DNA from: Deltaproteobacteria bacterium
GTDB lineage: Bacteria > Desulfobacterota > Desulfobacteria > Desulfobacterales > JAUVGT01
Direction of reading: 5' to 3'
NCBI GenBank assembly: GCA_030593645.1
Contig: JAUVGT010000027.1
Span: 1-19,967 of the forward strand
Length of the DNA: 19,967 nucleotides
Made by a program: the position numbers and the translations under genes. Shown in pieces: positions 6,920 through 19,644 of this stretch (positions are counted from its first letter, which is position 1; each line of letters begins with the position of its first letter). Under the pieces are notes generated by a model, which did no database searches, was not told the DNA's origin, and saw only the letters and a list, made by a program, of their open reading frames with translations.

Positions 6920-8260
6920 ATGAGCGAAGAAAAAAAAGCGAACACTATCATTGACTGTCTCTGTCAAGAAGGATGGGAGGCTTATATCGCGGGCGGAGCC
7001 GCCCGTGATATTATTAACGGTGAAATACCGAATGATTATGATATTGTAACCAATGCTCCTTATGAAGTCATTACCGAATTATTCGCGAAAAGGAAGATGT
7101 CCCTTGTGGGCGCGAGCTTTAAGGTGTGCATTATAGATGGTATTGAAGTCGCGACTTACAGGAAAGATAACTATTTATTAACACCAGGGAGTGTCCCCGG
7201 TGTAGTGGAGGCGAAAACCATACAGGAAGATTTGGCAAGGCGGGATTTAACCATAAACTCAATGGCATTTTGCCCATACAATGGCGACATCGTTGATGAG
7301 TATGGCGGCGTTGAAGATCTGAAAAACCGGATAATCAGATTGACCGGGAATCCTGGTGAAAGAATAATGGAAGATCCGTGCCGTATATTAAGGGCCTGCA
7401 GATTTCTTGCAAAGCTCGAAGGAAGTTTTGATCCCGCGACCTTTGAGGCGCTTAGAAAAAACAGCTTTCTTGTAATGGAAAGGGTTGCACCTGAACGGAT
7501 CAGACTCGAAATTCTAAAAACCATGCAGTATCATAAGCCCAGTATATTTTTTGACGCGCTCCATGAAATCGGCGCGTTAAAATATTTATCCCCGGGTTTT
7601 GAGTTGTGCTATCACCATGATGGCGGTGTGTATCATGGGGAAACTATAGACGAACACATTAAGATGGTTGGGGATTCTCTTTCAAAGCGAAAACCATTAC
7701 TGAGGCTTGCCGGTTTTTGGCATGATCATGGTAAACCGGCTGCTGCGGAATATCGAAATGGGAATGTTTCATTTATACGGCATGCTGTTCTGGGGACAGA
7801 AATCGTGGATCAGGAACTGATAAAATTAAAATTCAGCGTACGGGAAACAGAATTTGTAAAATCAATTGTCAGACACCATATGCGAAATATACATCCCGAT
7901 GACAAACCCAAAACAGTCCGCAAAATGTTAAAAAAGCTAAATGATGACGGTGTTAACTGGAAAGATTGGCTGCAAATCAAGATTGCGGATACAAAAGGGA
8001 ACCTGCAAAAGAAAAACTTAAACCGGAATGAAGTAAAGAAAATTGTATTTAAGATACGTAATGAACTTAAACCGGATTCCAAACAGGCGGTATTGAGTAT
8101 TAAAGATCTGGCTGTGAACGGTGAAGATGTCATGCGTACTCTACACATTAAAGCCGGTCCAAAGGTAGGAAAAGTGTTAAACAAGCTCCTGGACCATGTT
8201 CTGGATACTCCGGAACTCAATACGCGTGAAAAATTAATGAAGTTAATTCCGGAAGGCTGA
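6920..8260 (+). CDS. tRNA nucleotidyltransferase / poly(A) polymerase family (CCA-adding-enzyme-like) with a C-terminal HD phosphohydrolase domain.
   Basis: Pol-beta NTase head GGAARDIINGEIPNDYDIVT, tRNA-NT family RRD motif (DLARRDLTINSMA), and HD-domain metal ligands (FWHDHGKP ... HHMRNIHPDD). Confidence 0.8.
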   Translation: MSEEKKANTIIDCLCQEGWEAYIAGGAARDIINGEIPNDYDIVTNAPYEVITELFAKRKMSLVGASFKVCIIDGIEVATYRKDNYLLTPGSVPGVVEAKTIQEDLARRDLTINSMAFCPYNGDIVDEYGGVEDLKNRIIRLTGNPGERIMEDPCRILRACRFLAKLEGSFDPATFEALRKNSFLVMERVAPERIRLEILKTMQYHKPSIFFDALHEIGALKYLSPGFELCYHHDGGVYHGETIDEHIKMVGDSLSKRKPLLRLAGFWHDHGKPAAAEYRNGNVSFIRHAVLGTEIVDQELIKLKFSVRETEFVKSIVRHHMRNIHPDDKPKTVRKMLKKLNDDGVNWKDWLQIKIADTKGNLQKKNLNRNEVKKIVFKIRNELKPDSKQAVLSIKDLAVNGEDVMRTLHIKAGPKVGKVLNKLLDHVLDTPELNTREKLMKLIPEG

Positions 8261-8377
8261 TCATCACTAATCGGGAGACCATCATCATTAAATAACAATA
8301 TAGCTCAGGATGGGTTATGGTTGATCAGAAATGTATACTCTGGATGTTCAGTCAATCGTGAAAACAGGAAAAAGATA

Positions 8378-9298
8378 ATGAGCAGCATATTTCAGAAATT
8401 GGAAAATAAAAAACTTCTGGAACACCATCCCTCGTTTATCAGCACCGGTGTTCATTATGAGGTCGTAATGGGCTCAGTGGCTTACGGTGTTTCAAGTGAT
8501 GCTTCAGATATGGACGTATATGGGTTTTGTATTCCCCCGAAGGATTTTGTTTTTCCTCATTTGCGAGGAGAGATTCCCGGATTCAGCAAGCCGGGTTCAT
8601 CATTTGAGCAATTTCAGCAGCATCATATTTATGATCAAACGGCATGCGGCGGTAGAGGCAGGGAATATGATATAACCATATATTCGATTATTAAGTACTT
8701 TCGATTATGCATGGAGAATAATCCGAATATGATCGACAGTCTTTTTGTTCCAAGACGCTGCATATTGTACTCTACTCAAACCGGAGAATTGGTTAGAGAA
8801 AACAGGCACCTTTTTCTTCACAAAGGCGCGTGGCATAAATTTAAAGGATATGCCTTTTCTCAGGTACATAAGATGAATACAAAGCAGCCGATTGGAAAGA
8901 GAAAAAAAATTATTGAACAGTTCGGATATGATGTAAAGTTCGCATACCATGTGGTTCGGCTGTTAAACGAAGTTGAGCAGATTTTAACGGAGCACGATCT
9001 TGACCTGGAGAAAAACCGGGAGCAGCTTAAAGCGATACGGCGGGGAGAGTGGAGCAGTGAAAAAATAAAAGAATATTTCGCGTCCAAGGAAAGAGAGCTT
9101 GAATCCCTGTATACTTCAAGCAAACTTTCTCCAATACCCAAAGAATCGGAAATTCAAAACCTTTTACTTAACTGTCTTGAGCACCACTATGGAAGCCTTG
9201 AAGCCTGTATTATTCGGGAAGATGCGGCGATTAAAGCGTTAAAGGATATTGACAAAATTCTGGATCGTTTGGATATCAAAACTAAAATTAAAAGCTGA
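8378..9298 (+). CDS. Pol-beta superfamily nucleotidyltransferase, predicted-NTase (PF10127/RlaP-like) family, copy 1. The ORF track begins at TTG 8321; the ATG at 8378 has an RBS.
   Basis: GS-x9-DxD signature MGSVAYGVSSDASDMDVYGF. ~300 aa with an alpha-helical C-terminal half. It is a paralog of the next gene. RBS aggaaa precedes ATG 8378. Confidence 0.6.
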   Translation: MSSIFQKLENKKLLEHHPSFISTGVHYEVVMGSVAYGVSSDASDMDVYGFCIPPKDFVFPHLRGEIPGFSKPGSSFEQFQQHHIYDQTACGGRGREYDITIYSIIKYFRLCMENNPNMIDSLFVPRRCILYSTQTGELVRENRHLFLHKGAWHKFKGYAFSQVHKMNTKQPIGKRKKIIEQFGYDVKFAYHVVRLLNEVEQILTEHDLDLEKNREQLKAIRRGEWSSEKIKEYFASKERELESLYTSSKLSPIPKESEIQNLLLNCLEHHYGSLEACIIREDAAIKALKDIDKILDRLDIKTKIKS

Positions 9299-9380
9299 TT
9301 TAAGATGAACAGAGCCAATACCGACTCCGAATTTCGATTGAGCGCGTTATTATTTCCCCTTGAGGGGACAGGGTGATACT

Positions 9381-17767: not shown

Positions 17768-17843
17768 TTATAATAAATAGAATATATTTATTGTTAACAT
17801 GTTGATATAATGAAGATATGTGTTGAAATAAAATTATTGCAAT

Positions 17844-17872
17844 TGACATGTTCAGATATGGTTATTAAAATA
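17844..17872 (+). promoter_or_regulatory. Candidate sigma70 promoter for rtcR: TTGACA-N17-TAAAAT.
   Basis: TTGACA at 17844-17849, a 17-nt spacer, then TAAAAT at 17867-17872. Lies ~150 nt upstream of the rtcR start. Confidence 0.35.
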
Positions 17873-18021
17873 AATTATAAATATTTATATAAAACTATAA
17901 AAAATTATAATATAAATTTCAGATGGAAACGGATATCATGATTTTCATATCATTCCAATATCCCATGTTTCAGCAGCACTATCGGATCTGCTGTTATAGT
18001 GATTGAATAGGAGGCTCAACT

Positions 18022-19644
18022 TTGGATCATAATCCTTCGAAAAAAACAGTTGCCATTGGATTACTGGGCCCGATACTGGATATCGGAAAGAGTTCCAAAC
18101 GGTGGGAAAGATGGCGCCCAACTGTTTCCCTGTGCCAGCATGAAGATTTATTGATCGAACGTTTTGAACTTCTTTATCAAAAAAGGTTTACAAGCCTGAT
18201 GGAAAGGATTGTTAAGGATATCGGATATGTTTCCCCGGAAACAAAAGTGACTCCCCATGAAATTGAATTTGAAGACCCATGGGATTTTGAAGAGGTCTAT
18301 GGAGCGCTGCATGATTTTACCCGGGAGTATCATTTTGATCCTGATCAGGAAAATTATTTTGTTCATATTACAACCGGCACGCATGTGGCGCAGATTTGTT
18401 TATACCTGCTCACGGAGGCGTGTTACCTTCCGGCGAAACTGATTCAAACACGGCCGGCAGACAAAAGATCGGGTGATACCAGCGGTGAGTATACAATCAT
18501 AGACCTTGATTTGTCTAAGTATGACCGCATTGCCATGAGGTTTAAGCAGGAAATCGGGGATGATATTTCCCATTTAAAATCAGGAATTGAAACACGCAAC
18601 CCGGCCTTTAATACCCTGATTGAACGAATCGAAAAAGTGGCAATCAATTCAATCGATCCGATCCTTCTGACCGGTCCCACCGGTGCGGGCAAATCACAAT
18701 TGGCCGGCCGGATCTATGAACTGAAAAAATCACGGCGGCAGCTCAAGGGTGAATTTGTGGAAGTGAACTGCGCGACCCTTCGCGGAGATGCGGCCATGTC
18801 CGCTCTGTTCGGACATAAAAAAGGGGCTTTTACCGGTGCGGTGAAGGACAGGGAAGGGCTTTTGCGTGCGGCTGACAAAGGGATGCTATTCCTGGATGAA
18901 ATCGGGGAACTTGGTATTGATGAACAATCCATGCTGCTTCGGGCAATCGAGGAAAAACGTTTTTTGCCCGTGGGGTCAGACAGGGAATCGCAAAGTGATT
19001 TTCAATTGATCTGCGGGACAAACAAAGAACTTCAAATTGAAGTGGGTAAAGGCTGTTTCAGAGAAGATCTGCTTTCACGCATCAACCTATGGACGTTCAG
19101 CATGCCCGGATTAAAAAACAGAACCGAAGACATTGAGCCGAATTTAAAATATGAACTCGACAGGTTTGCCGAGCGTAATAATGCGCACATCACATTTAAC
19201 AGTGAAGCAAGAGAACGATTTCTCTCATTTGCCGTATCTGGGGAAGCAATTTGGTCCGCGAATTTCCGTGATTTAAATGGTGCTGTCACACGAATGTCAA
19301 CACTTTCAAATGGAGGCAGGATCACCCGAGAAGTCGTGGATGAAGAAATCAAACGGCTTGAAACGATGTGGTACATCCCGGATACGGGTAAACCGGAAAA
19401 GATACTTGGTGATATACTGGGTGAAGCGAGGGCCGCTGAAATAGATCGTTTTGACAGGATTCAGCTGATTGATGTTTTACGGGTGTGCATGGCATCGAAA
19501 AATTTGTCCGAGGCAGGCAGAAAACTTTTTTCGGTATCGAGAAAAAATAAAAGAAAAGCCAATGACGCGGATCGGTTAAGAAAATATCTCGGGAAGTACA
19601 CTATTAGATGGGAAGATATCGTGGACCTTCATGTAAAAGAATAA
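18022..19644 (+). CDS. rtcR: RtcR: sigma54-dependent transcriptional activator with an N-terminal CARF-like sensor domain and an AAA+ sigma54-interaction domain.
   Basis: N-terminus KKTVAIGLLGPILD...RWRPTVSLC matches RtcR. Walker A LTGPTGAGKS. GAFTGA sigma54-contact motif (GHKKGAFTGA). Arginine-finger region and a C-terminal helix-turn-helix (DADRLRKYL). The TTG start has an aggagg RBS. Confidence 0.92.
   Translation: MDHNPSKKTVAIGLLGPILDIGKSSKRWERWRPTVSLCQHEDLLIERFELLYQKRFTSLMERIVKDIGYVSPETKVTPHEIEFEDPWDFEEVYGALHDFTREYHFDPDQENYFVHITTGTHVAQICLYLLTEACYLPAKLIQTRPADKRSGDTSGEYTIIDLDLSKYDRIAMRFKQEIGDDISHLKSGIETRNPAFNTLIERIEKVAINSIDPILLTGPTGAGKSQLAGRIYELKKSRRQLKGEFVEVNCATLRGDAAMSALFGHKKGAFTGAVKDREGLLRAADKGMLFLDEIGELGIDEQSMLLRAIEEKRFLPVGSDRESQSDFQLICGTNKELQIEVGKGCFREDLLSRINLWTFSMPGLKNRTEDIEPNLKYELDRFAERNNAHITFNSEARERFLSFAVSGEAIWSANFRDLNGAVTRMSTLSNGGRITREVVDEEIKRLETMWYIPDTGKPEKILGDILGEARAAEIDRFDRIQLIDVLRVCMASKNLSEAGRKLFSVSRKNKRKANDADRLRKYLGKYTIRWEDIVDLHVKE

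Follow-up and report, generated by a model that had tools for sequence, protein, structure and literature searches.

What kind of RNA-repair locus is encoded on contig JAUVGT010000027.1 of a deltaproteobacterial genome assembly (GCA_030593645.1), and how many of the genes gathered there belong to it? This stretch of 19,967 nt, referred to below as the window, carries the RNA-repair genes rtcR, rtcA and rtcB together with a Band-7 protein gene, open reading frames (ORFs) without annotation, the ribosome-rescue gene arfB, a cluster of nucleotidyltransferases (NTases) and a GNAT acetyltransferase gene. A first-pass annotation made from the sequence alone read 12.7 kb of the window as one composite island for the response to RNA damage. 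We consider it probable that the window instead holds a Band-7-type Rtc RNA-repair operon, extended by arfB and by a split member of a protein family that we call famX, and that the NTase cluster is a separate unit. Related loci fetched for comparison are designated by L numbers.

The operon starts on the minus strand at a sigma-54 promoter, TGGCAC-N5-TTGCT (TGGCACatgcgTTGCt, 17766-17751). It is the sole exact match to the motif in the window, for which 1.09 matches with at most one mismatch are expected by chance, and an alignment places the motif at the same position in L086, L088 and L090. Divergent from it lies rtcR (18022-19644, plus strand), whose product combines a CARF-like RtcR N-terminal domain (PF06956, 4.9e-83) with a Sigma54_activat domain (PF00158) and passes the NCBIfam equivalog model NF038308 with 793.7 bits over a cutoff of 650; the divergent arrangement of rtcR and promoter had been recognized at the first pass. 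An AT-rich tandem repeat of about 20 nt in 1.9 copies (17872-17909) between rtcR and the promoter might be a binding region for the activator or for IHF. After the leader, the minus strand carries in order Band-7, rtcA, rtcB, the N-terminal half of famX, a TAA codon, the C-terminal half of famX, arfB and a small ORF termed ORF110. The Band-7/SPFH gene (slipin-like, 15783-16898, minus strand; Band_7 PF01145, 2.9e-35) encodes 371 amino acids, and the protein is soluble in that it has no transmembrane segment (maximum 19-residue Kyte-Doolittle hydropathy 1.02). Its homologs number more than 5000, are typically 368 amino acids long and 65-78% identical, and include one named after PA4582 of Pseudomonas aeruginosa; the close ones are labelled Desulfobacterales or Deltaproteobacteria. 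The RNA 3'-terminal phosphate cyclase gene rtcA (14589-15626, minus strand) matches RTC and RTC_insert in Pfam and NF003246 in NCBIfam (422.9 bits over 352), and rtcB (13310-14560, minus strand), for the 3'-phosphate/5'-OH RNA ligase, matches Pfam RtcB at 7e-107. Hidden Markov model (HMM) scans of the kind that the first-pass annotation had suggested, together with an ORF listing, recovered every gene it had named in its place, with Band-7, rtcA, rtcB and arfB on one strand and, on the opposite strand, an NTase of the CCA-adding type with an HD domain (CCA-HD), two RlaP-family NTases and the GNAT gene.

The core of this operon is well conserved. In L086, L088/89 and L090/91 all four core proteins are 73-76% identical to those of the window and are arranged in the same way, with RtcR divergent from a leader of about 750-1100 nt that is followed by Band-7, RtcA and (RtcB). 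The position of rtcA before rtcB, which had been listed as a peculiar feature, is merely the usual order of this clade, as these loci demonstrate. The class itself has also been described. According to a Wolin-lab preprint (bioRxiv 10.1101/312249), operons that combine a Band-7 protein, a tRNA-like RNA named b7a-tRNA and RtcB were predicted by Burroughs and Aravind (2016; NAR 44:8525), and the b7a non-coding RNA (ncRNA) "strongly resembles an authentic tRNA". The locus of P. aeruginosa runs rtcR-PA4582-rtcB-rlaP-rtcA, so that PA4582 adjoins rtcR and rtcB. The claimed departure from the Escherichia coli model stands as regards Band-7, arfB, the additional ORFs and a leader that is structured and tRNA-like; the combination of Band-7 with a tRNA-like RNA is not a novelty, since it had been predicted in print.

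The leader spans about 840 nt from the sigma-54 promoter to Band-7 and is strongly structured relative to shuffled controls (z = -4.6 and -8.2), which bears out the structured leader seen at first pass and adds a tRNA-like match within it. It is made up of two conserved structured RNAs in the position of the b7a-tRNA. Module 1 (17708-17406, minus strand) is a conserved RNA of about 300 nt closed by a long-range helix. Aligned from seven loci of distant taxa, it runs from a 5' GAUAcCGCCGGGCCAGCGGCGCAC block through a long helix, an invariant CCGAACAUGG and a small hairpin to tRNA-like D, anticodon and T arms, a 3-bp acceptor stem that is followed by NCCA, and more hairpins, until a 3' GGCCCGAGGG block pairs back with the 5' end; a weak hairpin with a U-tract, CCGG...CCGGUUUU, terminates the module and is kept in four close loci. 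In the RNAalifold consensus, 12 of 41 pairs show compensatory changes, as against 1-5 in slid controls, and 94.4% of the cells of the consensus structure are paired as against 27-42% when the partners are slid. This covariation, which involves the 3-bp acceptor helix and the helices of the anticodon and T arms, supports the fold. The full-length module was found by nhmmer directly upstream of Band-7 only, in nine loci from distant taxa, and elsewhere its centre was matched by ordinary tRNAs only. The tRNA-like domain (17570-17506, minus strand) matches Rfam RF00005 at 44.4 bits with the acceptor-stem positions gapped, and the same acceptor-less match lies just upstream of Band-7 in L086, L090, L018, L009 and L085. 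ARAGORN calls the element in one of seven orthologous loci and rejects it in the other six, the window included. In its architecture the leader seems to resemble a closed molecule of the Y-RNA type that carries a tRNA mimic more than it does a plain tRNA. YrlA itself was considered as the identity of the leader RNA and rejected, as no match to RF02553 was obtained at E <= 1 in 16800-18100 while L001, the positive control, matches at 75.4 bits. Module 2 (17329-17076, minus strand) is an irregular long hairpin of about 250 nt with the blocks CAUGCCAUGCAGCGCGUGGAUACCG and GCUCCGCAUGUUCAGUGUGG, for which nhmmer returns E-values of 1e-63 to 1e-77 in the window, L086/87, L088/89 and L090 and weak matches in L018 and L009; its RNAalifold consensus has 74 pairs, 16 of them compensatory. 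Neither module has an Rfam family of its own. Just upstream of the Band-7 ribosome-binding site, the minimum free energy fold shows a further hairpin of about 150 nt (16905-17060, minus strand) that is specific to the window: by alignment it is absent from L086 and L088, and Rfam returned spurious microRNA-model matches only.

Such a leader might act mainly in cis, as a 5' untranslated region that gates Band-7, rtcA and rtcB either as an attenuator or as a decoy reporting anticodon-nuclease or tRNA-processing activity. The two modules always share the strand of Band-7 and separate it from the sigma-54 promoter, the terminal hairpin and U-tract of module 1 are kept among close loci, the extra hairpin of the window abuts the ribosome-binding site, and the anticodon loop of the tRNA-like domain varies among the aligned loci, all of which would suit a cis-acting element. 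By analogy, however, YrlA and YrlB of Salmonella are processed from the operon transcript and bind Rsr, and in L018, L009 and L085 module 1 comes after genuine tRNA genes, as if it were co-processed with them; moreover, cis and trans roles are compatible. We regard a leader of mainly cis function as unlikely, though by no means negligible, and keep to the proposal that the tRNA-like RNA is a partner of the Band-7 protein.

Downstream of rtcB the first-pass annotation had noticed two ORFs of unknown family. Both are present, ORF128 at 12749-13135 and ORF161 at 12236-12721 on the minus strand, but they are not separate genes; they are the N-terminal and C-terminal halves of famX, interrupted by a single TAA (12751-12749). 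The two share one frame and together span one family of about 270 amino acids from end to end, as full-length homologs match the window in a single-frame tblastn segment from 13105 to 12239 across both ORFs, and the 171 homologs of ORF161 are mostly 258-282 amino acids long. The stop falls in the interdomain linker, where the window translates as ...AKQAL*PELAVWSQKMHH... (AKQAL*PELAV) and the homologs as AKQALKPDLAVFSQK (AKQALKP), with TAA in place of a Lys codon. An ATG restart lies 27 nt past the stop, and the C-terminal half that follows contains the invariant RQGEWFF, KPH and RHPDHxT motifs. Assembly error was rejected as the source of the TAA, which recurs in an independent Logan assembly of SRR18936878 that is 100% identical over 2042 bp.

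A close relative on a contig of JGI 3300009788 (L172), with 84% nucleotide identity, retains the order of famX-N, famX-C and arfB as well as the linker Lys; its stops, TAG five and TAA seven codons further on (350-358), lie within the same 8-codon linker. No canonical start codon lies there between the stops and the invariant RQGEWFF, and the segment differs from the window mostly synonymously; for this C-terminal half, non-canonical initiation, read-through and very recent inactivation are all possible. Comparison of the window with L172 by the Nei-Gojobori method gives ratios of nonsynonymous to synonymous substitution (dN/dS) of 0.14 for the N-terminal half, 0.10 for the C-terminal half and 0.22 for ArfB, at a dS of 0.6-0.8 and without a frameshift in either half of famX. 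Purifying selection on both halves therefore argues against a decaying pseudogene. Genes for the C domain only occur in L174, L175 and L176, and several stand-alone C-domain proteins exist in more distant lineages; the one in L175 directly follows an RtcB that is 76% identical to that of the window. We conclude that the C domain is the likely functional core of famX and that this lineage carries a split version.

famX is a large family that has escaped annotation. Its two halves and the homolog P0008 gave nothing consistent in Pfam, NCBIfam, PADLOC or PHROGs, 99 aligned members likewise gave nothing in Pfam, and no structural relative was found in PDB or BFVD. The AF2 model of famX has a pLDDT of 90.6. 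A profile search of 1.84 billion representatives returned 2976 clusters (50% identity) at E <= 1e-3, and the 150 best representatives include no domain fusion, all being stand-alone proteins of about 206-360 amino acids. Relatives are present in at least 475 stretches, counted with one genome per species, mostly from Planctomycetota, Acidobacteriota and Verrucomicrobiota, and tblastn gave no match in plasmid or phage collections. The alignment of 99 members has 26 invariant positions, among them those of GHDE, RQGEWFF, KPH and RHPDHxT, and since many invariant residues are His, Asp or Glu, famX is possibly a metal-dependent enzyme.

The genomic company of famX is telling. Its recurrent neighbours in 85 loci are RtcB (12), Rsr/TROVE-vWA (11-12), an HNH endonuclease (11), RtcR (8), RtcA (5) and Band-7 (4), with no others recurrent, and L001 has an RtcR operon in which famX is flanked by Rsr and a bona fide YrlA. 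Of 80 species loci, 28 have tRNA genes no further than 3 kb from famX, and 14 have arrays of at least five; almost all these tRNA genes point the same way as famX, and their density of about 0.6 tRNA per kb of flanking sequence is by our estimate some 50-fold over the typical genome average. Long co-oriented arrays of 14-31 tRNA genes with near-complete anticodon sets flank famX, Band-7, Rsr, RtcB and HNH in related loci (L010, L018, L060, L085, L009, L088, L029, L032 and L077; for example L018 7116-9716 and 12061-12215, and L010 12959-15626). The HNH endonuclease, of about 170-195 amino acids and embedded in tRNA arrays, recurs just downstream of famX in its 11 loci (for example L002 11512-12069 and L088 12593-13099), and its position echoes the HNH gene linked to the L-arrays of cyanobacteria. 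Taken together, RtcB, Rsr, RtcR, Band-7, HNH and long tRNA arrays as neighbours point to the biology of tRNA damage and translational stress. This company agrees with the association, known from cyanobacteria, of long tRNA arrays with an HNH gene and rtcB, and with the TrcR regulon of Anabaena. We infer that famX may be a tRNA-directed accessory factor.

The next gene on the strand, arfB (yaeJ, 11758-12183, minus strand), encodes a GGQ peptidyl-tRNA hydrolase with SGPGGQ and a Lys/Arg-rich C-terminal tail (NF006718 equivalog, 188.3 bits over 100). It begins 52 nt past the C-terminal half of famX, with no predicted terminator between. The order of famX-C followed by arfB is restricted to the window and L172, and is found neither in L173, the locus with the next-closest ArfB (72%), nor in about 170 other loci. 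Elsewhere a release factor, PrfH, is coupled to RtcB (Burroughs and Aravind, 2019; PMC6514570), and PrfH-RtcB2 has been described as sequential ribosome rescue and ribosomal RNA repair (PMC9304027). In L175 a true PrfH (1454-1966, minus strand; TIGR03072, 199.6 bits over 166.65) is convergent with RtcB and the C-domain-only famX, on a contig that ends before any position for RtcB2. Two different GGQ hydrolases thus stand beside an RtcB-famX pair in related lineages, which modestly supports a functional link, and we see the chances that ArfB is functionally tied to RtcB and famX as evenly balanced.

Several points weigh against an operon extended in this manner. The membership of famX, arfB and ORF110 in the RtcR operon is deduced from their common strand, short gaps and the lack of a predicted terminator. 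In the closest core relatives, L086, L088/89 and L090/91, neither famX and ArfB nor CCA-HD, RlaP, GNAT and ORF110 occur within 10 kb of the core. About 60 of the 85 famX loci have no Rtc gene in the fetched sequence. ArfB is a widespread housekeeping gene, and its homolog in L173 is not near any Rtc gene. Its neighbourhood is in general not conserved apart from a pseudouridine synthase (Burroughs and Aravind, 2019; PMC6514570). In L172, where the C-terminal half has no canonical start codon past the stops, a clean split into two proteins is less certain. Finally, the trans-acting scaffold role of Band-7 and its tRNA-like RNA is a proposal that is not known to have been put to experiment (bioRxiv 10.1101/312249).

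These points would suit a smaller system that consists only of rtcR, the leader, Band-7, rtcA and rtcB, with the famX halves a recent pseudogene and arfB a housekeeping gene that came to lie there by chance. The in-frame stops in both the window and L172, the missing start codon of the C-terminal half in L172, the closest core relatives without either gene and the unrelated context of the 72% ArfB homolog all agree with it. The strong purifying selection on both halves of famX does not, nor does the confinement of the stops to the interdomain linker, at different codons in two lineages, or the ATG that lies so soon after the stop in the window. Stand-alone C-domain genes are common, one of them directly after RtcB, and in L175 PrfH, a second release-factor paralog, lies beside RtcB and the C domain of famX. 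We therefore think it distinctly unlikely that the system ends at rtcB. In the extended operon that we prefer, famX and ArfB are lineage-specific additions, since the closest core relatives have neither. A broader proposal joins these threads, namely that famX is a new two-domain component of RNA-repair and tRNA-array islands, acts enzymatically on tRNAs or on the cofactor RNAs of Band-7 and Rsr, is split or read through here, and is coupled to ArfB or PrfH. We put this forward tentatively, as an idea that may well fail in one or another of its parts; if true, it would describe a rescue-plus-repair operon different from PrfH-RtcB2.

The NTase cluster, encoded on the other strand, converges on the operon, with 3.2-5 kb between RtcB and the RlaP genes. 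It opens with an NTase of the CCA-adding/poly(A)-polymerase family with an HD domain (CCA-HD, 6920-8260, plus strand; PolyA_pol, PolyA_pol_RNAbd, tRNA_NucTran2_2 and HD in Pfam), which can be assigned at the family level only because it scores under every NCBIfam equivalog cutoff (best NF009814, 178 bits under 290). It is followed by RlaP1 (8321-9298, plus strand), of a divergent phage-like clade (PF10127 1.9e-19, 70.8 bits over 23; phrog_388 1.5e-44), by the canonical RlaP2 (9360-10145, plus strand; Pfam RlaP 3.1e-84, 283 bits over 23; phrog_14344 3.6e-77) and by the GNAT gene (10368-11117, plus strand), whose product has a YoaP-like C-terminus and scores just over the cutoff of Acetyltransf_1 and just under that of YoaP in Pfam. 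RlaP is a named family of RNA-ligase-associated enzymes that extend the 3'-OH of damaged RNA by one or two nucleotides; the rlaP gene of Pseudomonas is placed between rtcB and rtcA. Among 80 metagenomic loci with RlaP1 homologs, CCA-HD is directly upstream in 12, RlaP2 directly upstream in five, RtcB within 10 kb in five and Band-7 present in one; GNAT, ArfB and famX are found in none of the 80, which are rich in tRNA, with 133 tRNA genes in 663 kb. CCA-HD and RlaP thus form a recurrent module for 3'-end repair that is loosely linked to RtcB.

The first-pass annotation had gone further, placing the whole 12.7 kb with CCA-HD, both RlaP genes, GNAT, arfB and the two ORFs under common regulation. 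The enzyme families do fit the published RNA-repair "syntax" of ligase, NTases, end-modifying enzymes and scaffolds; association with RNA ligases is what defines RlaP, homologs of RlaP1 are enriched for tRNA arrays and at times close to RtcB, and in Anabaena one repressor, TrcR, governs a translational-stress regulon of GNATs, rtcB, a slipin gene preceded by a hypothetical gene, an HNH gene and the trn array of tRNA genes (PMC8421152, PMC10272220). Yet the cluster has no sigma-54 site with up to three mismatches upstream; it has instead a sigma-70-like extended -10 element, TGgTATATAAT (TGnTATAAT type; 6850-6870, plus strand), about 50 nt before the CCA-HD gene. From the convergent orientation and the missing sigma-54 site it follows that the NTase cluster, though related in function, adjoins the RtcR transcription unit without belonging to it. 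The neighbourhood comparison that had been proposed as a check came out mixed, with the core kept and none of the flanking genes found near it in the closest relatives, and the GNAT gene accompanies the core in none of about 170 related loci, has the Anabaena analogy as its one tie to the system, and is most likely an unrelated bystander. A single co-regulated island of this extent is thus very improbable; what endures of it is an RtcR/sigma-54 Rtc locus with a gene family recurrently linked to RNA repair, and what falls away is the inclusion of the NTase cluster and the GNAT gene.

The remainder of the window adds little to the system. ORF110 (11123-11455, minus strand), which closes the operon strand at its 3' end, could be placed in no family: it gave no match in Pfam, NCBIfam, PADLOC or PHROGs and no tblastn match in any fetched locus. 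The spacer between Band-7 and rtcA is filled by a 68-nt tandem repeat (15646-15787; 2.1 copies, 94% identical, Tandem Repeats Finder score 256), each unit of which forms a hairpin of about 17 bp (fold z = -7.3); no further copy exists in the window or in 176 other fetched loci. Bases 1-6800 carry unrelated housekeeping and catabolic genes for a diadenylate cyclase, HU, a pyridoxal-phosphate-dependent ammonia-lyase, a hydrolase, a reductive dehalogenase and an amidohydrolase. Two candidates from this region were rejected by HMM scan, a 537-amino-acid ORF (5149-6762) considered as Ro60/Rsr, which is the amidohydrolase, and an ORF considered as QueG (3715-4893, minus strand), which belongs to a reductive dehalogenase subfamily (TIGR02486, 218 bits over 160). 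The latter hints at an organohalide-respiring or related anaerobe and fits the taxonomic labels of the close Band-7 homologs. Horizontal transfer as judged by composition was likewise rejected, the GC content being uniform at 0.38-0.47 across the window.

How might such an operon work? By what is established for Rtc systems (Hughes et al., 2020), the CARF-like domain of RtcR would sense damaged tRNA ends and then activate the sigma-54 promoter, RtcA would cyclise 3'-phosphate ends and RtcB would seal breaks with 2',3'-cyclic phosphate and 5'-OH. On the proposal of Burroughs and Aravind, soluble Band-7 would act with the tRNA-like RNA as a scaffold-cofactor pair at the place that Rsr (Ro60) and YrlA hold in Salmonella. 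famX might assist on tRNA, mainly through its C domain, and ArfB might release ribosomes stalled on damaged tRNA or mRNA, as PrfH does beside RtcB2. The separately transcribed module of CCA-HD, RlaP1 and RlaP2 could rebuild 3' ends, RlaP by adding 1-2 nt and CCA-HD by restoring or healing the 3' ends of tRNAs.

The Band-7/b7a-tRNA class of Rtc operons, as outlined in the cited preprint, and the RlaP NTases are already known. What appears to be new here is the split and unannotated famX, an arfB gene where the relative L175 has prfH, and a two-module leader missing from Rfam. The branch of Rtc repair that combines Band-7 with a tRNA-like RNA is a prediction not known to have been studied by experiment; the locus and its relatives now provide two conserved leader RNAs, supported by covariation, as defined objects, together with a protein family without annotation or structural relative to characterise. 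A ribosome-rescue factor beside RtcB, if it is linked, would extend the PrfH-RtcB2 idea of rescue coupled to RNA repair. The reading of the 12.7 kb as one island needs correction, since the NTase cluster forms a unit of its own and the GNAT gene is probably a bystander. Current models are left standing, and the locus offers concrete handles on a little-examined branch of RNA repair.

Among known systems, the E. coli rtcR-rtcBA locus shares RtcR, the sigma-54 promoter, RtcA and RtcB with the window and lacks Band-7, the ncRNA modules, famX and arfB; its gene order is the reverse. PrfH-RtcB2 (PMC9304027; PMC6514570) resembles the window in having a GGQ peptidyl-tRNA hydrolase gene beside an RtcB ligase gene, and a true PrfH accompanies RtcB and famX-C in the relative L175. 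It differs in that the ArfB of the window fails the PrfH model TIGR03072 (35.6 bits under 166.65), that its RtcB fails TIGR03073, the model of PrfH-linked RtcB (163 bits under 271.8), and that the adjacency of ArfB to Rtc genes is confined to two close relatives. Compared with the cyanobacterial L-arrays, long tRNA arrays linked with an HNH gene and rtcB, and with the TrcR regulon (PMC8421152, PMC10272220), the window has RtcR and sigma-54 in place of TrcR and has neither an HNH gene nor any tRNA gene by ARAGORN, and hence no array of the L type; RtcB, slipin/Band-7, HNH, tRNA arrays and GNATs do travel together in the loci that bear famX and RlaP1. The Salmonella rsr-yrlBA-rtcBA operon (Chen, 2014; Hughes, 2020) shares with the window RtcR and sigma-54 control, tRNA-like structured ncRNAs, a putative RNA-binding scaffold protein, RtcB and RtcA, and famX provides a further link to this type through the Rsr/YrlA operon of L001. 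No window ORF matches TROVE or vWA_Ro60, the leader has no YrlA match, and the window RNAs lie upstream of the scaffold gene, unlike in Salmonella. The closest counterpart is the Band-7/b7a-tRNA class. Set against its description in the preprint cited above, the window has the order Band-7, rtcA, rtcB, the addition of famX and arfB, and an RNA that is a closed molecule of about 300 nt with a 3-bp acceptor stem and a second module, a comparison made by description only; unlike in P. aeruginosa, RlaP stands outside the operon in the convergent cluster with CCA-HD. With that class the window shares RtcR and sigma-54, a soluble Band-7 protein beside RtcB and RtcA, a tRNA-like ncRNA directly upstream of Band-7, and RlaP nearby.

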